From sequence record PZ513998.1: 56,697 nucleotides of DNA; one strand, written 5' to 3'. The stretch is from a phage. Under the pieces are notes generated by a model, which saw only the letters and a program-made list of their open reading frames with translations, searched no databases and was not told where the DNA came from. Below are positions 6,412 to 53,439 of this stretch, piece after piece (positions within the stretch are counted from its first letter, which is position 1; every line of letters starts with the position of its first letter). The position numbers and the translations under genes were made by a program.

Positions 6412-8445
6412 GTGGAATCGAAAAGAACGTTAATTTTTGACTATGAAACATATAGCGAACTAGACATAAAGAAAGTAGGCGGTCACAAGTATGCACAGCA
6501 CCCGTCTACTGAAATTCTAATGGTAGCGTGGAAGTTTACTGACTCGGACGAAATCGGTTTTTGGGACAACACAATGCCCGAAGAAGATTTAGACGAGTTA
6601 AAGGGATATTTGCGCGACGATAACATCATAAAACGGGCATTCAACGCGCAGTTTGAGCGGTTGATCACTAAACACGTCCTAGGTATCGACACACCGTATG
6701 ACGTCTGGCGTTGTACGATGGTGGCTGCGTACCACCGAGGTTTTACCGGCGGGTTAGACATGGTTGGTAAGGCTCTAGGTTTTAAAGGGGATAAAGCAAA
6801 AGACGCAGCAGGTAAACGCCTAATTCAGAAATTTTGTAAACCAAGAAAGCCAACTAAACTCGACAAAAGTACAAGACACGATGCGGAATCACACCCGGAA
6901 GAATGGGAAGCATTCGGAGCCTATTGCCGACAAGACGTGATAGCCGAAGAAAATATCGACCGCCGTCTGAGTGACATCAAGTATGACATGATCGAATTTG
7001 AGTGGGAAGTTTACGCGTTAGACCAGAAAATTAATGACCGCGGAATAAATATCGATAACGACTTCATCGAAGCAGCAATAAAGATGGCCGAGACACGCAA
7101 GCCACAGATTATCGATGAAATGCGAGAACTTACAGGGCTAGCCAATCCCGGGTCTCAGAAACAACTATTAGCGTGGCTACAACAAGAGGGATACCCGTTC
7201 AACGACCTATTAGCTGACACCGTGAAAAAAGTCATAAACGAGTATCCGGACAATGGGATCACAGAAAAAGCGTGTCGAGTTCTTAAACTTCGTCGTAAAT
7301 CTAACAAAACCTCTCTAAAGAAATACAACAAAATGTTAGATATTGAAAACGACGACGGTAGGGTACGCGGAACAATTCAATGCTACGGGGGTTCTCGAAC
7401 CGGACGATTCGCCGGGCGGGGCTTACAAACTCACAACTTCGTAAGAACACCGAAGATACTTGAAGACGTCGAAGCTACGGAAATCGCTAAAAAGCTAGTT
7501 CTCGACCAAGACATGTGGGCTTTAAACGTTTTTGCTGGCGAACCCATGGATATGTTGCCGGGGCTACTACGATCCGCACTAATCCCAACGGTAGGTCGTC
7601 GCTTCGTTGTAGCGGACTTGTCATCAATTGAATCGGTAGTAATAGGTTGGCTTACCGGCTGTAAGTGGTTCCTAGATACCTTGCGGGCTAAAAAAGACTT
7701 ATATCGCGCATTCGCCTCAGCATGGCTAAAAATTCCTTACGAAGACACCCTCCCATTCCGAGGAAAGGCAAAACCGGCCACACTAGGTTGCGGATATCGA
7801 CTAGGCGGTGGCGAACTTATTGACGGTAAGAAAACCGGACTTTGGGGTTACGGTGAAAACATGGGAGTCATGCTAACACAAGAGGAGGCTCACGCTTCGG
7901 TAGACGCATTCCGAGAGTTGTGCCCTGAGATTGTTGACGGTTGGTATAAACTTGAAGATTGCGTAAAAACCACCATTAAGACGCACAAGACAACCCGATG
8001 GAGATCGTTAGTATTCGGGTTTAAAAAACCGTTCTTATGGATTAAGTTGCCATCGGGGCGGAAACTTTATTACTACCGCCCACGCTTAGTAACAAACACC
8101 TACAAGAACCGCAGAGGTGAGACGTACACTCGTCAAGAAATAATGTACGAGGGTAAAAAAGATCAAGGCGGTTGGGGTGTTCAAACCACGCACGGCGGGA
8201 AATTGATTGAGAATATCGTTCAAGCCATAGCAAGAGATGTCCTAGTAAACGGCATGTTTAATGCGGAAGAAATAGGTTTCGATATCGTATTCCACGTTCA
8301 CGATGAAATCATAACGGAAGTCGACGAAGATGACCTGTTAGGGCTAGACGACCTCATTGATTGTATGGCAGCACCGATATCGTGGGCGCCGGGACTACCA
8401 TTAGGAGCAGCAGGGTGGGAGGGGTATTTTTACCGTAAAGATTAA
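6412..8445 (+). CDS. DNA polymerase, family A-like with 3'-5' exonuclease domain
   Basis: 677 aa, GTG start; exo motif FDYETYSE, motif A-like VADLSSIESVV, motif B-like RGKAKPATLGCGYRLG, motif C HVHDEI. Confidence 0.75.
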   Translation: MESKRTLIFDYETYSELDIKKVGGHKYAQHPSTEILMVAWKFTDSDEIGFWDNTMPEEDLDELKGYLRDDNIIKRAFNAQFERLITKHVLGIDTPYDVWRCTMVAAYHRGFTGGLDMVGKALGFKGDKAKDAAGKRLIQKFCKPRKPTKLDKSTRHDAESHPEEWEAFGAYCRQDVIAEENIDRRLSDIKYDMIEFEWEVYALDQKINDRGINIDNDFIEAAIKMAETRKPQIIDEMRELTGLANPGSQKQLLAWLQQEGYPFNDLLADTVKKVINEYPDNGITEKACRVLKLRRKSNKTSLKKYNKMLDIENDDGRVRGTIQCYGGSRTGRFAGRGLQTHNFVRTPKILEDVEATEIAKKLVLDQDMWALNVFAGEPMDMLPGLLRSALIPTVGRRFVVADLSSIESVVIGWLTGCKWFLDTLRAKKDLYRAFASAWLKIPYEDTLPFRGKAKPATLGCGYRLGGGELIDGKKTGLWGYGENMGVMLTQEEAHASVDAFRELCPEIVDGWYKLEDCVKTTIKTHKTTRWRSLVFGFKKPFLWIKLPSGRKLYYYRPRLVTNTYKNRRGETYTRQEIMYEGKKDQGGWGVQTTHGGKLIENIVQAIARDVLVNGMFNAEEIGFDIVFHVHDEIITEVDEDDLLGLDDLIDCMAAPISWAPGLPLGAAGWEGYFYRKD

Positions 8446-9051
8446 ATGGCAAAACTTAAACCAGTAAAACGTATTAAACATGAAGGTAAAACAGTAGCGG
8501 TAATCTATGAAGACGGCCACGTCCGAATTGATAATGTTCGCTTGTCATACCCACACTTAGCAACACCACAAGAGGGTGATGACGGCAGTAAAAAGTTCGG
8601 TGCTACATTCTTATTAGACAAGGACATTCATTCTGAAACAGCCGAAGTCTTAAAAGATTTAGCAGCTAAAACAGCGAAAAACGCGAAAGTGAAAGTCCCG
8701 TCATCGAAGTATTTCATCAAAGATGGTGACGAAGAATTTTCGGACAAACCTGAATGTGAAAATATGTTTGTTATCTCCGCCCGGGAAAAGAAACGTCCTG
8801 TTTGTCGAGATGCTGACAAAGAAGAAATCGACGTAGACGATATTGAAGAAATCCTATACGGCGGTTGCTATGTTAGTGCCTTGATTGGTCTTTGGGTTCA
8901 AGATAACAAATACGGAAAACGAGTTAACGCTAACCTCCGTTCAATCAAATTCATCAAAGACGGCGAGCCGTTCGGTGCTGAAAGAATCGATGATTCCGAA
9001 GCGTGGGACGACGAAGACGAATGGGGTGAAGGCGAAGAAGACGACATCTAA
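8446..9051 (+). CDS. DUF2815-like phage ssDNA-binding protein
   Basis: 201 aa; acidic C-terminal tail DDSEAWDDEDEWGEGEEDDI as in SSBs; conserved position between DUF2800-like nuclease and DNA polymerase. Confidence 0.5.
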   Translation: MAKLKPVKRIKHEGKTVAVIYEDGHVRIDNVRLSYPHLATPQEGDDGSKKFGATFLLDKDIHSETAEVLKDLAAKTAKNAKVKVPSSKYFIKDGDEEFSDKPECENMFVISAREKKRPVCRDADKEEIDVDDIEEILYGGCYVSALIGLWVQDNKYGKRVNANLRSIKFIKDGEPFGAERIDDSEAWDDEDEWGEGEEDDI

Positions 9052-10380
9052 ATGGATAAATCATTTTTACATCGACTTATGTTGGCTTGCGAAAATGACG
9101 GACATTCGATATTCGCACCGTCATACTCCGCAACTTGGATGAATTGCCCCGGGTCGCTAGTACCTAGCATCTTGGAGGAAGATTCAGCCGGGTTCGAGGC
9201 AGCCGAGGGAACCATCGCCCACGCTATTGCTGAGGAGTGGTTGAGAACCGGGAACAGGCCCGACCACTTATTAAATACAACTCAGGTACACGAGGAGAAC
9301 GGAAATCGATTCGAGATCCCGGTCGACCACGAAATGTTCGAGTATCTTCAAGAATACATTAAGATGTGCGGTGAGAACAAAGGCGATCAGTTTGTAGAAA
9401 CTAAAGTGTGGTTCACGGACTTAATGCCGATCGCCAACCCGGACGCAGACGAGCTAAACGGGGAAGATGAAAGCCCGATTAAGTTTATCCGACAAGGCGG
9501 TACGTGTGACCACGCTGTATGCCAACCCGGTAAATTAATCATAACCGATTTGAAATACGGGCAATTCATTCACGTTTCTACTGACGACAATACTCAATTG
9601 AAATTGTACGCATACGGATTCTTTAGAGAGTTCGACGAAAAGTATCACTTCGAAGATATAGAGATCCGTATCTGTCAACCGAGAAAATATAATTTTGGCC
9701 GGTTTAAGATGACCCGTTCGGAGATTATCGCTTTCGGGGAGCGAGTGAAAAAAGCCACCAAAGAAGCGTGGAGTATGGACGCTCTACGTTACCCAAGTGA
9801 AAAGGCTTGCGAGTGGTGTAAGATATCCTACAAATGCCCGGCGAACTTCGCAAGAATACTAGATCTCAAGAACGGCAGATACAGCCCTAACCCATTCGGA
9901 TACTCGGCGGACGACATGGCAAGTATAAAAGATCTCCTCAGAGAAGAACTAAATTTACAATTAAAAGAGACTTCCCTATTGACATGGGAGGAAATTTCGT
10001 TAATATACCCACATCGCAAGCCGATAGAGAAGTGGTTCAAAGATGTTGAGAAAGCAGCATCAAAACGGATCATGGAGGGTAAGCCGATAAAAGGCTTGAA
10101 GATGGTAGCGAAAAGAGGGACTCGGCAGTTTGTTGAGGAGTCCACGGCCACGGAAGAACTAGAATTTGTAGGGCTAGACGAAAGTCAAATAAACCCCACA
10201 AAGATGATATCCCCGAAACAGGCCGAAACACTATTGAAAAAGCTAGGATATGATAAAGATGTTGTTAAAAGCATCTTGTCTGACCTGACTTTTACAAAAC
10301 CGGGCGAACCGACGTTAGTTACAGAGGACGACCCACGAAAAGACCTAAACGAGAAGTATCAAGAAGTTTGGGACGATTAA
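9052..10380 (+). CDS. DUF2800-like PD-(D/E)xK (Cas4-like) nuclease
   Basis: 442 aa; N-terminal MDKSFLHRLMLACENDGHSIFAPSYSATWMNCPGS; Cys cluster CEWCKISYKCP; conserved partner of DUF2815 and PolA. Confidence 0.55.
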   Translation: MDKSFLHRLMLACENDGHSIFAPSYSATWMNCPGSLVPSILEEDSAGFEAAEGTIAHAIAEEWLRTGNRPDHLLNTTQVHEENGNRFEIPVDHEMFEYLQEYIKMCGENKGDQFVETKVWFTDLMPIANPDADELNGEDESPIKFIRQGGTCDHAVCQPGKLIITDLKYGQFIHVSTDDNTQLKLYAYGFFREFDEKYHFEDIEIRICQPRKYNFGRFKMTRSEIIAFGERVKKATKEAWSMDALRYPSEKACEWCKISYKCPANFARILDLKNGRYSPNPFGYSADDMASIKDLLREELNLQLKETSLLTWEEISLIYPHRKPIEKWFKDVEKAASKRIMEGKPIKGLKMVAKRGTRQFVEESTATEELEFVGLDESQINPTKMISPKQAETLLKKLGYDKDVVKSILSDLTFTKPGEPTLVTEDDPRKDLNEKYQEVWDD

Positions 10381-10863
10381 ATGTCACAACAAAACGGCGT
10401 TTTAGAAATGTTATTAGCTAGCTTCGCAACTTTAAACGAGAATATCGAGAAGTTAAACGGAAACATCGAAGCGTTGGTAGCTAACGGCGTAGCATCGGGT
10501 AAAACTGAAACTAATGCCGACACTAAAGCTGAAAGCAAATCTGAAACTAAAGCAGAAAGCAAGTCAGAGACTAAGACAGAAGAAAAGAAAGCGGATAAAA
10601 AATCTAATTCTAAAAAATCTGAAAAACAAGCTGACAAGCCGGCGGATAAACCTAAATACACTAAATCAGACATCACCGAAGCGCTTCGCAAAGTTCGAGC
10701 TGATATCGACAAAGAAGAAGCGGTTCGCATCATCAATGAAGTCGGCGGTGTTGAGAAGATGGGCCAGATCCCAGAAGATAAGTATGAAGCTGTTTTCCAA
10801 GCGTGTGAAGCATCTCTTAACGGTGAATCAGATGACGACTCAGGCGATGACGACGATATGTAA
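10381..10863 (+). CDS. hypothetical acidic protein with KSETK repeats
   Basis: 160 aa; repeats ESKSETKAESKSETKTEEKK and Asp-rich C-terminus SDDDSGDDDDM; function unknown. Confidence 0.35.
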   Translation: MSQQNGVLEMLLASFATLNENIEKLNGNIEALVANGVASGKTETNADTKAESKSETKAESKSETKTEEKKADKKSNSKKSEKQADKPADKPKYTKSDITEALRKVRADIDKEEAVRIINEVGGVEKMGQIPEDKYEAVFQACEASLNGESDDDSGDDDDM

Positions 10864-11199
10864 TTGACTGGATTGTCTCGTTTCGACACGGCCTATAATA
10901 CTCGTTATGAAATCCCTGTCAACACCTTTTTGACGAAATTTTTATATCGGGTATCCACCTCAATGTTAGGCCACCCGAAAAGTTTCATTGCCGGTAAGAT
11001 GTTTATCGCCTTTTAGGTGATACTTTTATCCTCTCAACTGATATCGCTCTCAGGTGGCCGTAGATTTAAGTCCGTTCACGTATTGACTTTCTGTTTTAAG
11101 TGGAATATCCCGCGCGTTGACTTATCTATAATTCTTGCGGTATTATCTGCGTCTACCCTCGGGTTAGATTTATCACAACTAAGGAGCAAGTATTTATGA

Positions 11200-11484
11200 A
11201 TGAAAGAGAGTAATTTCCCATCGTGGGCGAAGAACAATAAAACGGGTCGACTTAAATTCATGATCCGGCATTTAGCCAGTTTCGCTTCGGAGGAGGGCCA
11301 CCTAGTTTTCCTGTGCCGAGACGCTAAACTGTCGGTTCGTGGTGTCTCACAAGCAATCGACCGAGGAGAATTCACCTTTCAAATGGCGGATAAACTCGTT
11401 AAGGCTGCAAGCGTTGCTGGAAACCCGGACGTCACAGTTATGAACCTATTAAAACCTATGGAATCATTTAAAGAGGACAAATAA
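11200..11484 (+). CDS. hypothetical protein
   Basis: 94-aa ORF; AAGGAG 9-13 nt upstream (11182-11187). Confidence 0.3.
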   Translation: MKESNFPSWAKNNKTGRLKFMIRHLASFASEEGHLVFLCRDAKLSVRGVSQAIDRGEFTFQMADKLVKAASVAGNPDVTVMNLLKPMESFKEDK

Positions 11485-14160
11485 ATGTCTAACGTTTTCA
11501 AATCTCGTGGCCCTGAACTTTTCGACAATGGATACGAAGTCGTACCTATTACTCGTATCGACGCAACTGACAGCAAAGGGAAATTATTGTCTGGCGCGGG
11601 TAAAGCCCCGGCGTTAAAAGGGTGGCAGAAAATAGAGATCACTTCTGACATCGTTAATGAATGGGCGACGGGTAGTCGCTCTCGCTGTGGTGTGGGTATT
11701 CGTACCCACCGTAACCCTGCTGTCGATATCGACTGTTTAGACGCCGAAGCGTCAGAACACATGACGGCTTTCGTTGAGTCGGAAGTGGGCTTTGCTCCTA
11801 TCCGTGTTGGGCGTGAACCTAAAGCGCTACTCCTCTATTATACAGAACGTCCTTTCACAAAAGTAAAATCAACCATCTTCGTTGATGAAAACGGGAATGA
11901 AAACGCTGTCGAGATATTAGGAAGCGGGCAACAATTCGTTGCTTACGGTATCCACCCGGGAACTAAGAAACCGTATAAATGGGTTACTAAAGGCGAGTCG
12001 CCTGCGGAAAACCAAGCGGATTTTGACCTTGAAGAAATCACACTAGAAGACGCGAGAAAAATTATTGCGGAATTCGACCGGTATGCGAAAGAGCGCGGTT
12101 GGAAACCTTTAAAAAGTAAAAGCGGTACGGTCATCAAGCCATCTTTGGGCTACTACTTAGATGCTCCGGAAGAACTATCAGACTGGTCGGACGAGTCGGA
12201 CTTTGACGATGATGAAGACGATTGGGTCACTACTGATGATATCACCGATAAATGGGACGGTACTTACGAAGAACTTTACGAAATCTTCGAAAATGATATC
12301 GAACCATCTTACGATTACCACACTTGGATTCCTGTTCTGGCTGCACTTAAAGACGCCGAACGTGAGCCGGACGAGTTTAAAGAGATCGCGAGAATGTGGT
12401 CTGCTCGGGCCGAGGAGTCTTTCGATAACGATGCCTTTGAAGATAAATGGGAAAACGGTAATTTCAATCGTGTTGGTAAATACGCTAAGACATTACGAGG
12501 AGTAATTGCCGAAGCGGAAAAGATCCAAGGCGTTCGCGAAATTGAGGACGTAGTTATACCTTTATTCGAAAAAGCTACTGACTTGGCCGAGTGGACTTTA
12601 GCTGCCGACCGCCTACGTGAAACGTGGGCTTTCGGTTTAGAAAGAGAGACGGCCATAAACATTGCTTGCGAAAAGTATAAGAAAGTCACTAACGGGTTAA
12701 AACTTACGGACGTTCAAAAGAAACGATATCTTAGTATCGATTACTCTCTCTTTGACGCTCCCGAATGGTTGGCTCCTTGGGTTTATTGTACTACGGATAA
12801 CGAGTTTATTAACTTAGACAATAGAACCAGAATGAACCCTAAATCTTTCGCGAATGCCTATAACCGAGAAACTGTGAAGAAATTCGGGGTAGCTGCGGAC
12901 GTTTTCGCCACGGTTGAAAGACCCGTTCCTGTTATCCACGATACGATGTATTACCCGTTGATGCACGGTGAGATGCCTAAGAACAAATGGAAGCGGGTTC
13001 CGGGTATTAATGACAAGCGTGTTTTCGAATACAACGGTTTGACGTTCTTAAATACCTTTGACCATCGTTCCATGCCTGAGACCGCAACAAAAATTTCGAC
13101 CGCTGGATATAAGGCGATCGGGGAGGTAAAACGATACTTCGAAATACAGTATCCAGATCCAGACGAACGAAGACATGCGATGGACTGGATCGCGTGGGTT
13201 ATCAATAATCCTGTTAGAAAGATTAACTATATGCTTCTCGTTCTTGGTGGTCAGGGTTCCGGTAAAACCATCGTTAAGAAGTTTATGGAACACATGCTCG
13301 GCTCTGATAACGTCTCTACGATTTCGAATAAGGTTATCCATGGTAATTTTACCGGGTGGCAGTCTGGTCACATGCTCAAAGTTATTGAGGAAATATCGGT
13401 GAGTGGTCATCGCTACGACGTTATGAACTCATTGAAAGAGCCGATATCGAATGAAACGTTACAGATCGAAGCGAAGTACCGTGACCCACGCCAGTGTGTG
13501 AATACTTCGTCGTATATGGCATTTACCAATGATGTTGGTGCTTTGCCTCTTACATCAAGTGACCGTCGCTTCTTGTTAGTTCGTAGTGCGTTCCAGCACA
13601 AGCGTGAAGTCACTGAATACCTACGGAAAGACCCTAATTACTTTAAACGGTTTGAGAAAGCCTTTACTAAACACGCACCGGAGATCCGCAAATGGTTTAG
13701 CGAGTGGGAGTATTCCGAGGGCTTCAAACACGATGGTAACGCTCCTGAAACGGTGAGTATGGGAAGCATGTCTTTAGCGTCAGAAGACGATTTCACCTCC
13801 GTAGTAATGGGGGCCGTAGATGATTGTGAGAAAGAGTTAGAATTTACATCGGGGATCACAGACGAAGTAATTTTCATTCCATCGGCAGTAGATTTAGTCC
13901 GAGATAGGTCTAAGGTTCCTAACGGGAAAATAATATATCGCATACTCGCTGAATATGGTTTCTTCCGGCCTGTGGATTCTCGTACACAAATAAGATTTAA
14001 TGACGTAAGAGGACAAGTTGTTGTCGCGAATAGACATAAATGGCTCTATCCTGATGGGAGTGTCAACGTAGATAAGATTAAAGAGCATTTAGAGGAGAAC
14101 GAACGCCGGGTAGAAGAACAAGAAAGCAAGAGAGAGTTAGAAGAAACTGACGTTTTCTAA
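11485..14160 (+). CDS. DNA primase-polymerase (prim-pol) fused to D5/P-loop helicase
   Basis: 891 aa; N-terminal prim-pol-like segment (GKAPALKGW, VGIRTHRNPAVDIDCLD, EILGSGQQFVAYGIHP); C-terminal Walker A LVLGGQGSGKT. Confidence 0.75.
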   Translation: MSNVFKSRGPELFDNGYEVVPITRIDATDSKGKLLSGAGKAPALKGWQKIEITSDIVNEWATGSRSRCGVGIRTHRNPAVDIDCLDAEASEHMTAFVESEVGFAPIRVGREPKALLLYYTERPFTKVKSTIFVDENGNENAVEILGSGQQFVAYGIHPGTKKPYKWVTKGESPAENQADFDLEEITLEDARKIIAEFDRYAKERGWKPLKSKSGTVIKPSLGYYLDAPEELSDWSDESDFDDDEDDWVTTDDITDKWDGTYEELYEIFENDIEPSYDYHTWIPVLAALKDAEREPDEFKEIARMWSARAEESFDNDAFEDKWENGNFNRVGKYAKTLRGVIAEAEKIQGVREIEDVVIPLFEKATDLAEWTLAADRLRETWAFGLERETAINIACEKYKKVTNGLKLTDVQKKRYLSIDYSLFDAPEWLAPWVYCTTDNEFINLDNRTRMNPKSFANAYNRETVKKFGVAADVFATVERPVPVIHDTMYYPLMHGEMPKNKWKRVPGINDKRVFEYNGLTFLNTFDHRSMPETATKISTAGYKAIGEVKRYFEIQYPDPDERRHAMDWIAWVINNPVRKINYMLLVLGGQGSGKTIVKKFMEHMLGSDNVSTISNKVIHGNFTGWQSGHMLKVIEEISVSGHRYDVMNSLKEPISNETLQIEAKYRDPRQCVNTSSYMAFTNDVGALPLTSSDRRFLLVRSAFQHKREVTEYLRKDPNYFKRFEKAFTKHAPEIRKWFSEWEYSEGFKHDGNAPETVSMGSMSLASEDDFTSVVMGAVDDCEKELEFTSGITDEVIFIPSAVDLVRDRSKVPNGKIIYRILAEYGFFRPVDSRTQIRFNDVRGQVVVANRHKWLYPDGSVNVDKIKEHLEENERRVEEQESKRELEETDVF

Positions 14161-22218: not shown

Positions 22219-22539
22219 ATGAAAAATTCAAACGTAGCACTCGCCATTGATTCCGTTTTGGTAAAAAAGAAAATTGATATTATCCCGGTTTTTAAATCGT
22301 TAGAGGAAGAATATCAAATGCGGATACAAGCGTCGTGGTCAGGCATCACCGCGCACACGCCAGAACGACGCATCTACACCCACGGCCACCCGACTACTAA
22401 GATGGCAACAACACCGGAACAACGTACAACGTATCGCCTCCGTCTATTGAAATTCCTACGGTGGCTCTACGCGAACAACTACACAACGGGGCCACTGTTA
22501 GAAATCAAATCGTGGCTAGAGGAGCAAGAGGAATGGTAA
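22219..22539 (+). CDS. hypothetical protein
   Basis: 106-aa ORF. Confidence 0.3.
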   Translation: MKNSNVALAIDSVLVKKKIDIIPVFKSLEEEYQMRIQASWSGITAHTPERRIYTHGHPTTKMATTPEQRTTYRLRLLKFLRWLYANNYTTGPLLEIKSWLEEQEEW

Positions 22540-22887: not shown

Positions 22888-23976
22888 ATGAAACCATTTG
22901 ATAAATTTATTGCTTTTGCAATATCTGAACCAGCAGACCCTAACAATACGACTTCGTTTTCCGCATTAGCTAACGGGACAGAAGACCAACTAAAACAACT
23001 AGGCCGAGAACTAGAAACAAGCCTGAGAAACTTACCGATCGGAGACCCAAGCGCTATGCAGTGGACGCGCCACGGTTTTGCTAAACCCGACGAGAACGCC
23101 GAACCGATCACCGTTGTAGATGAAGTCCTAGGGGACATGGAAGACACACCATACGTTATGATAGACGAAGCGGGTAAATATCTTGTGTTCACTTTCGAAG
23201 AACGTGCTCGAATGCTAAGCCCGACAACGATCAAGGACGAATTAGAGGTTAAAGTAAAAGATTGGATAGAACGAGTTGGTGACACCCCGACAAAACGTGA
23301 ACGTAATGATATGCGCGATGAAATCATCAATGACTTGTTGCCAAAGGCCACAATAAAGCGCACCAAGACATACGCCATGATCATCAAGGGTGTTCTTATT
23401 GTCTTCGCCGGTAGCAATAACATCGGTGAAAAAGTAGCATCGGCCGTAAGAAAGGTAGTAGGGTCTCTCCCAGTAGTACCATGGTTTGAGCATTCGGCCC
23501 TCATTACGGAGTTTCTAAAGAAAATCGCTACGGTAGACTTTGACCCGGAAGATGCAGTAGGCCAAGCGCTAGATAAATTTGAGATTGTCCGTAGTGCTAA
23601 AGTCTCCGCTGAAACCGGTGCGTACACTTTCAAAGATGTTTTTGACATCACGAATGACGTTTCCTTCAAAGAAGCGCTAGGACAAACTAACGGATACTCA
23701 TACCCTCTCGGGATCACCGAAGCGAATTTAGAATTACGACATGACGCCACAGACAGCCCTATCGGTTTTGTTCTTACGGCCAAAGGCGTTTTAAAGAGCG
23801 TAAATTGGAATGACGAGCCGGAAAATATTTTCGACGACTCAGTGTTTGACACGAACGAGGAACGGGAGCGTGCTCGATTTATTTTCTCTACGTGGGACGC
23901 TTACACCTTAGTTACGGCCGTGCTAGGAGCGCTACACAACGCAAACGCAAACCGATTTGTAGAAGACGATATGTAA
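22888..23976 (+). CDS. RdgC-like recombination-associated protein
   Basis: 362 aa; segment KRERNDMRDEIINDLLPKA...AVRKVVGSLPVVPWFEHS matches the RdgC core (…LKDEVLHSLLPRAF…LLRKSLGSLPVVPLSMEN). Confidence 0.6.
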   Translation: MKPFDKFIAFAISEPADPNNTTSFSALANGTEDQLKQLGRELETSLRNLPIGDPSAMQWTRHGFAKPDENAEPITVVDEVLGDMEDTPYVMIDEAGKYLVFTFEERARMLSPTTIKDELEVKVKDWIERVGDTPTKRERNDMRDEIINDLLPKATIKRTKTYAMIIKGVLIVFAGSNNIGEKVASAVRKVVGSLPVVPWFEHSALITEFLKKIATVDFDPEDAVGQALDKFEIVRSAKVSAETGAYTFKDVFDITNDVSFKEALGQTNGYSYPLGITEANLELRHDATDSPIGFVLTAKGVLKSVNWNDEPENIFDDSVFDTNEERERARFIFSTWDAYTLVTAVLGALHNANANRFVEDDM

Positions 23977-53091: not shown

Positions 53092-53439
53092 ATGTCAGAG
53101 ACCAAAGAAACTGTAGTACAACGCGTGGCGCTTCAAACGATCATCTTACGTCGTAACGGCCAGCAATTCGTTCCGGCCATCGGCGATGTAGTTGAACTCA
53201 CAACCTCCGAGTTAGAACAGATTAACGCAACTAACCCTAGCGCTATCGGCCACATTAAGATTAATCAATCTGTGGCAAAGGCCCTCGTCGAAAAGACGGT
53301 TGATATGGAAGCCATCAAACGAGAAGCACTAGAACAAGCCCGTGCAGAACTCGCAGCCGAACAAGCTAAATCCGCAGACACGGCAAAGAGCAATAAGAAA
53401 GGAGCCAAAGCGAAGACCGACGCTGACGACGATCTATAA
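53092..53439 (+). CDS. putative head completion / DNA stabilisation protein
   Basis: 115-aa ORF with Ala/Lys-rich helical C-terminus, adjacent to major capsid gene; positional assignment. Confidence 0.3.
   Translation: MSETKETVVQRVALQTIILRRNGQQFVPAIGDVVELTTSELEQINATNPSAIGHIKINQSVAKALVEKTVDMEAIKREALEQARAELAAEQAKSADTAKSNKKGAKAKTDADDDL

Follow-up and report, generated by a model that had tools for sequence, protein, structure and literature searches.

A small protein family with an SSB-like acidic tail, encoded beside the exonuclease, SSB and PolA genes of phages

In HMGB1 and SSB-type proteins, a basic region that binds nucleic acids is paired with an auto-inhibitory acidic tail. In phage T7, the tail of gp4 (the primase-helicase) behaves like that of gp2.5 (the SSB) and, in the same manner, docks on the T7 DNA polymerase. 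Acidic tails of Gp2.5-type SSBs mediate polymerase and helicase binding, as that of gp2.5 does for the polymerase and primase-helicase of T7, and occupy the SSB groove in Enc34 crystals (PMC5686142, PMC12339929). The auto-inhibitory tail of gp2.5 is covered by reference 14 as cited in PMC5686142.

Like T7 gp2.5 and gp4, the 160-residue protein described here has a C-terminus that is disordered, rich in Asp and Glu, and closed by a hydrophobic residue, which is critical in the T7 system. As in T7, several proteins of one replisome bear near-identical tails, and the SSB of the module is a structural homologue of gp2.5 (PMC5686142, PMC12339929). Unlike gp2.5 and gp4, however, the protein has neither an OB fold nor an enzymatic domain, and its binding is proposed by analogy. 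The polymerase of the module, unlike that of T7, lacks the thioredoxin-binding insertion, and the tail is also common to a PD-(D/E)XK exonuclease and, in some phages, to a SNF2 helicase and an RdgC-like protein. From genomic context and this analogy we suggest, with moderate confidence, that the product of the ORF is a conserved accessory factor for replication and recombination, belonging to the module of DUF2800 exonuclease, Gp2.5-like SSB and family A polymerase, and that it would dock through its SSB-like tail.

The gene and its native operon

The window, that is, the whole 56,697-nt stretch of DNA analysed, is an artificial concatenation of 86 gene calls, all on the plus strand and in frame 1, without intergenic DNA. 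The calls are those of a phage nearly identical to Escherichia phage E21 (Lavrentievavirus). The gene under study (10381..10863, + strand) is a complete ORF from ATG to TAA that encodes 160 residues and corresponds to E21 gp09 (YP_009998113), with 100% identity to E21 over 484 nt. In native genomes it opens a leftward operon, followed by the genes for the DUF2800 exonuclease, the Gp2.5-like SSB, PolA, VRR-NUC and the SNF2 helicase, and a cro-like gene and the primase gene are divergent from it. The initial annotation had placed the ORF within a replication module, which is right for its neighbours but not for the layout, since the window is artificial and the gene is natively the first of its operon.

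The PD-(D/E)XK exonuclease gene (9052..10380, + strand; DUF2800, PF10926, E 2.7e-66) lies natively directly downstream of this ORF. The Gp2.5-like, Enc34-type SSB (8446..9051, + strand; PF10991, E 1.5e-29) has a tail reading ...WGEGEEDDI, and the PrimPol/D5-type primase-helicase (11485..14160, + strand), whose gene is natively divergent from the ORF, ends in ...RELEETDVF. The family A DNA polymerase (PolA; 6412..8445, + strand) has no acidic tail.

The native promoter of the gene is sigma70-like (TTGACA-16-TATTAT), matches 11 of 12 consensus positions (L001, 4922-4949) and lies about 50 nt 5' of the ATG in E21. Its single exact match in the window is found at 10895..10922 on the minus strand, displaced and inverted because the intergenic region became attached to neighbouring gene calls. 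In E21 the gene has, besides this promoter, its own Shine-Dalgarno sequence and terminator. Early expression from this host-type promoter of its own is probable.

The family was found at 72 of 94 module loci; at 68 of these 72, its gene precedes the exonuclease gene by less than 1 kb on the same strand. The same gene position was observed in E21, in four divergent metagenomic relatives and in seven IMG/VR loci, as well as in Chivirus YSD1, Klebsiella phage KPN N54, Xanthomonas phage FoX4 and Achromobacter phage phiAxp-2. Synteny was established by profile search for Bordetella phage BPP-1 and Staphylococcus phage phi12, and judged by eye for Vibrio phages, Ruegeria phage DSS3-P1, RcRios and APSE-3. 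It thus spans phages that are very divergent and infect Gram-negative as well as Gram-positive bacteria. For three sub-families, namely a charge-swapped one (P0091), an HeH-type one (P0177) and one with a DDFA tail (P0104), the contigs were too short to span the module. The DUF2800 exonuclease alone occurs in 886 of 50,697 phage records, from phages that infect Proteobacteria, Firmicutes, Bacteroidota and Actinobacteria. The combination of DUF2800 exonuclease, Gp2.5-like SSB and PolA is among the commonest phage replication cassettes, and the small protein that nearly always accompanies it is still without a family description.

Architecture and relatives of the protein

The protein is made up of four parts: an N-terminal helix with heptad repeats, a disordered linker of about 55 residues, a three-helix C-domain and an acidic tail whose final residue is hydrophobic. 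The N-terminal amphipathic helix (residues 4-39; 10390..10497, + strand) was predicted by AF2 with a pLDDT of about 90 over residues 11-30. Its heptad pattern, L8/L11-12/F15/L18/I22/L25/I29/L32, can be read directly from the sequence, and the motif L..L..A...N(T/E)..L is conserved in family alignments. This helix is likely a coiled coil or a partner-binding helix.

The linker (residues 38-92; 10492..10656, + strand) is of low complexity and rich in K, E, S, T and A, with an AF2 pLDDT below 50 over residues 38-89. It has a net charge of +4, varies in length among relatives and houses both the KSETK repeats and the Lys-rich block EEKKADKKSNSKKSEKQADKPADKPK, which forms the centre of the protein. 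The tandem repeats, the Lys-rich centre and the poly-Asp C-terminus (SDDDSGDDDDM) were all correctly described in the initial annotation. At the DNA level, the repeat has a 24-bp unit present in 3.1 copies (10500..10574, + strand; Tandem Repeats Finder score 78) and encodes (A/T)ESKSETK units. Its translation, TKAESKSE-TKAESKSE-TKTEEKK, contains two exact AESKSETK units and partial copies. Because the number of SKSETK-type units ranges from 1 to 4 among close relatives (>90% identical), the repeat is a true slippage-type array.

The conserved C-domain (residues ~95-147; 10663..10821, + strand) was modelled by AF2 from a 125-sequence alignment as three helices (95-108, 111-122 and 132-147), with a mean pLDDT of 83 and a core above 90. 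Its family signature is ..AL.KV(K/R)....A..II.evGGVeKM..IPedKY.AV..ACeaaL. The tail ESDDDSGDDDDM (10825..10860, + strand) comprises 12 residues with a net charge of -8. It appeared disordered in both models, with a block-mean pLDDT of 52 over residues 150-160 when the C-domain was modelled and values under 50 over residues 154-160 when the full-length protein was. The whole protein has a pI of 4.66 and a net charge of -11, which falls to -3 without the tail. The protein is thus acidic overall, but most of its negative charge sits in the 12-residue disordered tail and is segregated from the basic linker.

An exhaustive search retrieved 139 representative clusters with the same architecture, in which the N- and C-terminal regions are conserved down to about 25-30% identity. 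Among these clusters there is no Pfam family, no named PHROG and no PDB relative. The protein matched phrog_7721 (E 2.5e-50, residues 4-160 against profile positions 1-138 of 138), as did 54 of 54 relatives tested, and weak links were seen to phrog_408, phrog_32389 and phrog_18562. Since phrog_7721 and the linked PHROGs carry no functional annotation, membership names the family but does not explain it. Names given in databases, such as porin GjpA, FmdB regulator, RecT and TolA, are inconsistent and wrong. The family is widespread and has no described function.

Neither profile sequence searches nor Foldseek gave a significant match in the PDB (best Foldseek E 2.4), and Foldseek against BFVD matched uncharacterised phage proteins only; one 'RecT family' and one 'ERF superfamily' protein were matched weakly, at their ends (E 1.5-1.9). 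No characterised structural or scaffolding family, a match to which would have refuted the functions first suggested for the ORF, was found in Pfam, PHROGs, PDB sequences, PDB folds or BFVD; a Borrelia BB1 scaffold surfaced at E 6.3 and probability 0.21 only. The model is all-helical, without an OB fold, and neither PF10991 nor another SSB family was matched; the protein is not itself an SSB. A word-index homologue search with the full protein and the C-domain profile retrieved only small unannotated proteins and no domain fusions hinting at function. A tblastn search of the phage collection with the relative P0146 (full length and C-domain) gave no match, with masking of low complexity as the probable cause. 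Pfam matches to DUF6033 and MC1 (E 0.008-0.01) were under the curated cut-offs and were treated as low-complexity noise. The C-terminal (HhH)2 of NusA was rejected as a fold relative (Foldseek E 2.7, rmsd 8.5 A). By eye, the GGV.KM hairpin loosely resembles a helix-hairpin-helix, an unsupported likeness.

Acidic tails of the module proteins

The last residue is L, M or I in 108 of the 138 family representatives. Depending on the lineage, the tail ends in V, I, L, M or LLG, in step with the SSB and exonuclease that each phage encodes, and it often also tracks the tails of the primase and helicase. In YSD1, for instance, the family protein, the exonuclease and the SSB end in EEDDV, DDDEV and WEDEV, respectively, and in DSS3-P1 they end in DDDDILG, DVDDLLG and GDDDLLG. 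In Kokobel1 the family protein ends in DEDM and the SSB in EEEM, and in Saba both are L-terminal. At locus L061 the primase, family protein, exonuclease, SSB and helicase all end in [DE][DE][DE]I. Four DNA-metabolism proteins of the window carry such tails: the SSB (EEDDI), the product of this ORF (DDDDM), the primase (ETDVF) and an RdgC-like protein (VEDDM). As their last residues differ in E21 (M, I, F), the match there is one of motif class and not of identity. Some members of the family, such as bbp35 of BPP-1 and that of phi12, have no acidic tail.

The co-variation was assessed by permutation in a set of 31 loci, dereplicated at an SSB identity of 70%, in which shared ancestry is still present. 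With shared ancestry thus included, the family protein and the SSB had an identical last residue at 16 of 31 loci, compared with 8.4+-1.8 expected (p<1e-4); for the exonuclease and the SSB the figure was 18 of 31, against 8.3 expected (p<1e-4). Under very strict single-linkage dereplication (50%, n=10), agreement between family protein and SSB was not significant for the last residue (p=0.10) but stayed significant for the last three residues (p=0.018).

Up to five module proteins share a lineage-specific acidic ending, which points to one shared docking site. The family A DNA polymerase is a candidate docking hub for these tails; its region aligned to the front basic patch of T7 is modestly basic only. 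Because its tail is like those of the SSB and nuclease of the module, the protein has the look of a helper in replication and not of a DNA mimic. The initial annotation had also offered an SSB-related factor as a possibility, and this comes close, in that the tail resembles and co-varies with that of the phage's own Gp2.5-like SSB.

By analogy with T7, the tail of such an accessory protein would dock on a receptor that reads the SSB tail, which could be the polymerase, the primase-helicase or the basic cleft of the SSB. The basic linker may touch DNA non-specifically, and the N-terminal helix may oligomerise or bind another protein of the module. The acidic tail might also fold back onto the basic linker and act as an auto-inhibitory switch, as SSB tails do. 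The shared tail offers a concrete and cheap handle on the assembly of these replisomes.

Other explanations

A DNA-architectural or regulatory role outside the replisome, in which an H1- or HMG-like protein would coat or bend DNA near the divergent promoter and origin, is unlikely in our view. The acidic tail would then serve solely to auto-regulate DNA binding. As in HMGB1 and SSB-type proteins, a basic segment is followed by an acidic tail in one chain, and the charges of linker and tail are anticorrelated in sign across the family (131 representatives, Spearman -0.41, p 1e-6); the linker is acidic in all seven representatives whose tail is basic, and the family includes a charge-swapped sub-family. 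Unlike in HMGB1 and SSB-type proteins, the basic part is no HMG box or OB fold but an unstructured linker of low complexity. The linkers of relatives are suggestive of DNA binding: AT-hook-like GRP motifs occur in 18 of 138, that of DSS3-P1 has H1-like AKPAAK repeats, and HeH-like motifs are present in some. The gene also abuts the divergent promoter region beside the cro-like gene, and in APSE a putative origin is annotated in the neighbouring intergenic region, between cro-like and repressor-like genes. The histone-like character proposed for the ORF at first therefore has some basis in relatives with AT-hook or H1-like AKP linkers but not in this member, which contains no GRP motif and no basic tail of (A/K/P) repeats. 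With a linker of just +4 and no AT-hook, DNA binding is only weakly suggested for the 160-residue protein. Moreover, an architectural role leaves unexplained both the agreement of the last residue with those of SSB and exonuclease and the conservation of the N-terminal helix and C-domain.

The gene could also encode an inhibitor of host nucleases, the positional analogue of lambda Gam or T7 gp5.9, although we consider this quite unlikely. By blocking RecBCD or AddAB, such a protein would allow linear replication and recombination intermediates to survive. Gam is a helical dimer, and the present protein is likewise small, helical and mildly acidic, with a heptad pattern in its N-terminal helix and a charge density similar to that of Gam (-0.07 against -0.06 per residue). 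Its gene has its own host-type promoter and lies directly upstream of exonuclease and annealase genes, a position that mirrors lambda gam-bet-exo and T7 5.9-6. Firmicutes phages often place Mu Gam-like or small coiled-coil proteins upstream of annealing-protein modules (PMC8093625). However, the protein has no sequence or profile similarity to either inhibitor: there was no Pfam match to lambda Gam, Mu Gam or gp5.9, and in BLASTP gp5.9 was matched over 5 residues at E 1.1 and Gam at E 19. It differs from both by its long disordered basic linker and by a tail that follows those of the phage's own SSB and exonuclease, which argues for a phage-encoded partner. One and the same family also serves phages of RecBCD hosts and of AddAB hosts, and the DNA-binding motifs in relatives' linkers do not fit a DNA-competitive inhibitor.

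A bolder form of the accessory-protein proposal, which we judge distinctly unlikely, is that the family is an unrecognised core subunit of PolA-type replisomes that lack the thioredoxin-binding insertion, acting as an oligomeric, DNA-contacting tether. If so, it might be a processivity or organising factor that keeps the polymerase on DNA, or a hub adaptor by which a single tail-reading site is occupied in turn by SSB, exonuclease, primase and helicase. In that case the C-terminal peptide, shared and co-evolving, would serve the entire replication and recombination machinery as a phage-specific 'address tag'.

The hypothesis favoured at first, an anti-restriction DNA mimic of the Ocr/ArdA type that blocks type I restriction enzymes, is very improbable. 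It is true that the protein, like these mimics, has a low pI and a poly-Asp end, and that its gene is probably early with a promoter of its own. Yet no Ocr or ArdA family was matched in Pfam by the ORF (E<=1) or by 54 relatives (E<=0.01), and BLASTP against T7 Ocr gave chance matches of 4-8 residues at E 80 or worse. Negative charge is 3.5 times denser in T7 Ocr (-0.24 per residue, against -0.07 here), and basic residues are a third as frequent there (5% K+R, against 16%). True mimics bear their charge on a folded, DNA-like surface; here it lies in the 12-residue tail, and the rest of the protein carries a mere -3. About one third of the chain is disordered, and the folded part is predicted to be a 55-residue three-helix bundle with no neighbour in the PDB; beside it the model shows one long helix, and no fold that imitates bent B-DNA. 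Anti-restriction accessory genes are usually not locked in synteny with a replication module, but this gene is held in strict synteny with replication genes. The reversed charges of one sub-family, with acidic linker and basic tail, do not fit a mimic either. The DNA-mimic reading is thus largely refuted here, and the protein should stay out of catalogues of DNA-mimic anti-restriction candidates, from which a false lead is removed.

A Ser-rich antisense ORF of 170 residues (10377-10889) was discarded, since it mirrors, as an artefact, the low complexity of the coding strand. That the gene itself is a chance ORF or low-complexity artefact, as its low-complexity centre, the overlapping antisense ORF and the inconsistent database names might suggest, has a negligible probability and is refuted by the termini conserved in 139 representative clusters, and it is further opposed by the confidently predicted fold of the C-domain, the proper promoter, Shine-Dalgarno sequence and terminator of the native genome, and the conserved gene position.

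The KSETK protein and its family

The ORF at 10381-10863 (+) consists of 160 codons with an ATG start and a TAA stop, and its product, the KSETK protein (MSQQNGVLEMLLASFATLNENIEKLNGNIEALVANGVASGKTETNADTKAESKSETKAESKSETKTEEKKADKKSNSKKSEKQADKPADKPKYTKSDITEALRKVRADIDKEEAVRIINEVGGVEKMGQIPEDKYEAVFQACEASLNGESDDDSGDDDDM), corresponds to gp09 of Escherichia phage E21. The repeats, the Lys-rich centre and the poly-Asp C-terminus described in the initial annotation were each found in the translated ORF, which contains a 24-bp tandem DNA repeat in 3.1 copies (10500-10574). Since the number of SKSETK-type units varies from 1 to 4 among relatives more than 90% identical to the protein, this stretch is slippage-prone and of low complexity. 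The protein is acidic as a whole (pI 4.66, net charge -11), with a segregated charge: the linker (residues 38-92) carries a net charge of +4 and the final 12 residues one of -8, and without these 12 residues the net charge is only -3.

An AF2 model of the full protein, built on a close-family alignment, comprised a long helix at residues 4-39 (central pLDDT about 90), residues 38-89 without structure, and a helical C-terminal region of lower confidence. As read from the sequence, the N-terminal helix (N-helix) has a clean 3-4 hydrophobic spacing (L8, L11/12, F15, L18, I22, L25, I29, L32). A second model, of residues 90-160 and based on a 125-sequence alignment, was confident (mean pLDDT 83, core >90) and displayed a three-helix domain (95-108, 111-122 and 132-147) followed by a disordered tail.

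A word-index search recovered close relatives only, and an exhaustive HMMER search with a profile of the C-terminal domain (C-domain) gave a family of 139 representative clusters. Nearly all members are 105-230 aa long and follow one common plan: an N-helix (motif MSlE..l..Lt.A...NTaAL), a low-complexity linker that varies in length and is rich in A, K, T, E, P and G, a C-domain with the signature ..AL.kVKe..G...AK.iIkevGGVeKMadIPedKydAV..A...aL, and a usually acidic tail whose final residue is L, M or I in 108 of 138 representatives. A few members bear a tandem pair of C-domains. AT-hook-like GRP motifs, such as KKGPGRPKK, occur in the linker of 18 members, and other members have a HeH/SAP-like motif or, like that of Ruegeria phage DSS3-P1, H1-like AKPAAK repeats.

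None of the members searched matched Pfam. All of them match phrog_7721, with weaker links to phrog_408, 32389 and 18562, each of these being annotated as 'unknown function'. The PDB yielded no relative of the family by sequence (best E 0.08) and none of the KSETK C-domain by fold (best E 2.4), and the matches in BFVD were uncharacterised phage proteins only (Saba, Aeromonas A18P4, phiAxp-2, FoX4, Burkholderia AH2, RDJL Phi 2, Enc34 and others). The family is so far undescribed. The names given to homologues in GenBank/RefSeq, UniProt and JGI are inconsistent and implausible, and are probably low-complexity artefacts: 'outer membrane porin GjpA' (ASh-2020a), 'putative FmdB family transcriptional regulator' (P2-71, NotEvenPhaged), 'RecT protein' (KPN N54 gene 12), 'Membrane spanning protein TolA' (RDJL Phi 2) and 'vacuolar-type H+-ATPase subunit H' (a JGI entry).

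Genomic context and shared C-terminal tails

In every examined locus long enough to judge, the family gene adjoins the same replication/recombination module, which includes a DUF2800 exonuclease, a Gp2.5-like SSB and PolA. These loci came from four divergent metagenomic relatives, seven IMG/VR entries, and the named phages Chivirus YSD1, Klebsiella phage KPN N54, Xanthomonas phage FoX4, Achromobacter phage phiAxp-2, Bordetella phage BPP-1 (bbp35) and Staphylococcus phage phi 12. The duf2800-gp2.5-polA module has already been noted (PMC8093625), and 'four hypothetical proteins' were counted in it in the Enc34 paper (PMC5686142). The C-domain profile detected the family in 72 of 94 module-bearing loci; the gene lies on the exonuclease strand, less than 1 kb upstream, in 68 of these 72 and is directly adjacent in 37. 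The DUF2800 exonuclease itself is present in 886 phage records. The same architecture was recognized by eye in Vibrio phage NVP1093O_70, DSS3-P1 gp79, RcRios gp3 and the C-terminus of APSE-3 gene 19. Phage phi 12 (NC_004616) contains an unannotated 120-aa ORF immediately 5' of its DUF2800 exonuclease (locus L027, 2642-3004; about 6743-7105 of the record) with the family N-helix, a weak C-domain profile match (E 5e-4) and no acidic tail, and by these sequence features the family may extend to staphylococcal temperate phages.

Within one phage, the family protein, the exonuclease and the SSB have similar tail peptides, which differ between lineages. The tails of these three proteins are, respectively, EEDDV, DDDEV and WEDEV in YSD1, EEDDV, DDDDEV and EDDDV in KPN N54, and DDDDILG, DVDDLLG and GDDDLLG in DSS3-P1. 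Family protein and SSB end in SGEDM and GDDEM in phiAxp-2, DEDM and EEEM in Kokobel1, and DDDL and DDEL in Saba, the exonucleases of these phages (...DLNGQ, ...EVWDD and ...VWDDD) giving no match. Primase and helicase tails often fit the pattern of the same phage, and up to five proteins per module (primase, family protein, DUF2800 exonuclease, SSB and SNF2 helicase) share a lineage-specific acidic end such as ..DEV, ..DDI, ..DDL, ..DDLLG or ..PLA. Related loci with shared tails were L013, L018, L019, L023, L061, L082, L092 and L094. In L013 the family protein, exonuclease, SSB and primase end in DDGL, TTDL, DDEL and SEDL; in L061 and L082 the first three end in I, and primase and helicase in [DE][DE][DE]I; in L094, where the family was not detected, exonuclease and SSB end in GNPLA and EDPLA. 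PolA had no such tail in any compared locus.

This agreement was evaluated by a permutation test in which loci were dereplicated at 70% SSB identity (31 loci) and pairings were shuffled 10,000 times, a shuffle in which shared descent remains. The last residue was identical between family protein and SSB in 16 of 31 loci (shuffles 8.4+-1.8, p<1e-4), between exonuclease and SSB in 18 (8.3, p<1e-4) and between family protein and exonuclease in 10 (5.6, p 0.013). When clustering was made very strict (n=10), significance was kept only by the scores for the last three residues (family-SSB and exonuclease-SSB, each p=0.018). Concordant switches among close relatives (M/M in Kokobel1, L/L in Saba, M/I in E21) argue for repeated concerted change.

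Among the 86 window products, six have an acidic run with a hydrophobic end, and four of these are DNA-metabolism proteins: the SSB (EEDDI, 8446-9051), the KSETK protein (DDDDM, 10381-10863), the primase (ETDVF, 11485-14160) and an RdgC-like protein (VEDDM, 22888-23976). The two others are small proteins, one of DUF7443 in the structural region (..DADDDL, 53092-53439) and one of phrog_7734 (..EEQEEW, 22219-22539).

Possible role of the KSETK protein

Docking through acidic tails is a known principle of the T7-like replisome, in which gp4 bears a tail similar to that of gp2.5. T7 gp2.5 docks on basic polymerase patches by its acidic tail, whose terminal Phe is essential, and this tail also interacts with the primase-helicase (PMC12339929; PMC5686142), and in Enc34 SSB crystals the tail sits in the groove of a neighbouring SSB (PMC5686142). 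The co-variation of the module tails, taken with the T7 analogy, suggests that one receptor would recognize all of them, the KSETK protein being one of its clients. The polymerase of this window lacks the T7 thioredoxin-binding insertion, and its segment aligned to the T7 front basic patch is only modestly basic. By this analogy, we give about an even chance to the KSETK protein being an accessory factor of the replication/recombination module. It would dock through its acidic tail, its linker may contact DNA, and its N-helix may oligomerise or bind a partner. The AT-hooks of relatives point to linker-DNA contact, though only weakly for the KSETK protein, its own linker having a net charge of +4.

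A purely architectural or regulatory DNA-binding protein would account for the linker but leaves the last tail residues unexplained, and is unlikely. The gene position makes a Gam/gp5.9-like nuclease inhibitor possible, yet this role is quite unlikely, as it fits poorly with a family tail that tracks phage proteins and with a family found in phages whose hosts have RecBCD as well as in those whose hosts have AddAB. The proposal of the initial annotation, an Ocr/ArdA-type DNA mimic, is contradicted and highly improbable: the protein and its relatives have no homology to Ocr/ArdA, its charge density is 3.5-fold below that of Ocr with three times the basic residues, its charge is concentrated in a short tail, its models have no DNA-like fold, and the family is strictly syntenic with the module.

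With architecture, family, synteny and tail co-variation established, a testable further component, whose role is proposed from context, and a testable assembly rule are added to a common phage replication cassette. Nothing was found in the open-access literature on a module-wide shared tail, and we know of no earlier report of it.

Across 131 representatives, the net charge of the linker is anticorrelated with that of the tail (Spearman -0.41, p 1e-6). A positive linker is combined with a negative tail in 96; each of the seven basic tails goes with an acidic linker, and no representative is positive in both parts. In a charge-swapped sub-family (representatives P0091, P0115, P0159, P0169, P0173 and P0181), the linker is strongly acidic, with a net charge of -5 to -12, and the short tail is basic (..KKAKK, ..AKKK). 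The family-wide charge pattern would fit an electrostatic linker-tail contact, intra- or intermolecular. The opposed charges resemble the arrangement of tail and basic DNA-binding surface in SSBs, whose tails vie with DNA for that surface, as cited in PMC5686142 (its reference 14).

Organization of the window relative to E21

By megablast and tblastn, the window falls in the Lavrentievavirus group (Casjensviridae), and it is essentially identical to Escherichia phage E21 (NC_052983). Piecewise alignment revealed that each E21 minus-strand gene is individually flipped, that intergenic DNA is missing between gene calls, and that gene overlaps are duplicated (4 nt, TGAA, at 11201-11204; 1 nt, A, at 11485). 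Read in frame 1, the full 56,697 nt form 86 ORFs on the + strand, placed end to end. The window is an artificial concatenation and not a natural sequence. Its gene order is reliable, but since genes were flipped singly and spacers dropped, orientation, spacing, promoters and terminators are not readable from it.

In native E21 (locus L001), the primase and a 94-aa cro-like gene run leftward; after an intergenic region of about 350 bp, gp09, the DUF2800 exonuclease, the Gp2.5-like SSB, PolA, VRR-NUC and the SNF2 helicase run rightward. E21 gp09 has a predicted sigma70-like promoter (TTGACA-16-TATTAT, 11/12 consensus positions) about 50 nt upstream, a Shine-Dalgarno sequence AAGGA, and a GC-rich hairpin with a T-run 20 nt past its stop codon. 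In the window this promoter is inverted (10895-10922), and the Shine-Dalgarno sequence and terminator are absent.

The exonuclease call (9052-10380) begins 27 nt upstream of the RefSeq start (E21 gp08, L001 5571-6872); this longer start, ATGGATAAA, is preceded by AGAGG and looks better supported. Two 'genes' at 10864-11199, of 50 aa (TTG start) and 60 aa (GTG start), tile the E21 divergent intergenic/promoter region; a permissive gene finder has most likely over-called here. The 94-aa gene before the primase (11200-11484) belongs to phrog_7401 (unknown function) and gave no match in a Pfam search; its slot holds an annotated cro-like/helix-turn-helix regulator in FoX4, APSE-3, RcRios and a Vibrio phage, and this gene and the divergent promoters probably make up the module's control region.

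Compared with E21, the record of Proteus phage Q29 (GenBank OM962992, locus L002, 3946-8265) shows four genes that are individually inverted at their own positions, those for the exonuclease, SSB, polymerase and VRR-NUC, whereas the orientation of the short spacers between genes is unchanged. Annotation of this record is limited to 18 features, and the gene-by-gene inversion looks like an artefact of deposition or assembly. Genomes sharing 98-99% identity with these Proteus phages carry the names Staphylococcus phage SVV09-A, Enterococcus phage AS-M1_NWU, Pseudomonas phage E21, Escherichia phage E21 and several Salmonella phages; on near-identical genomes, host labels that differ in this way are suspicious.
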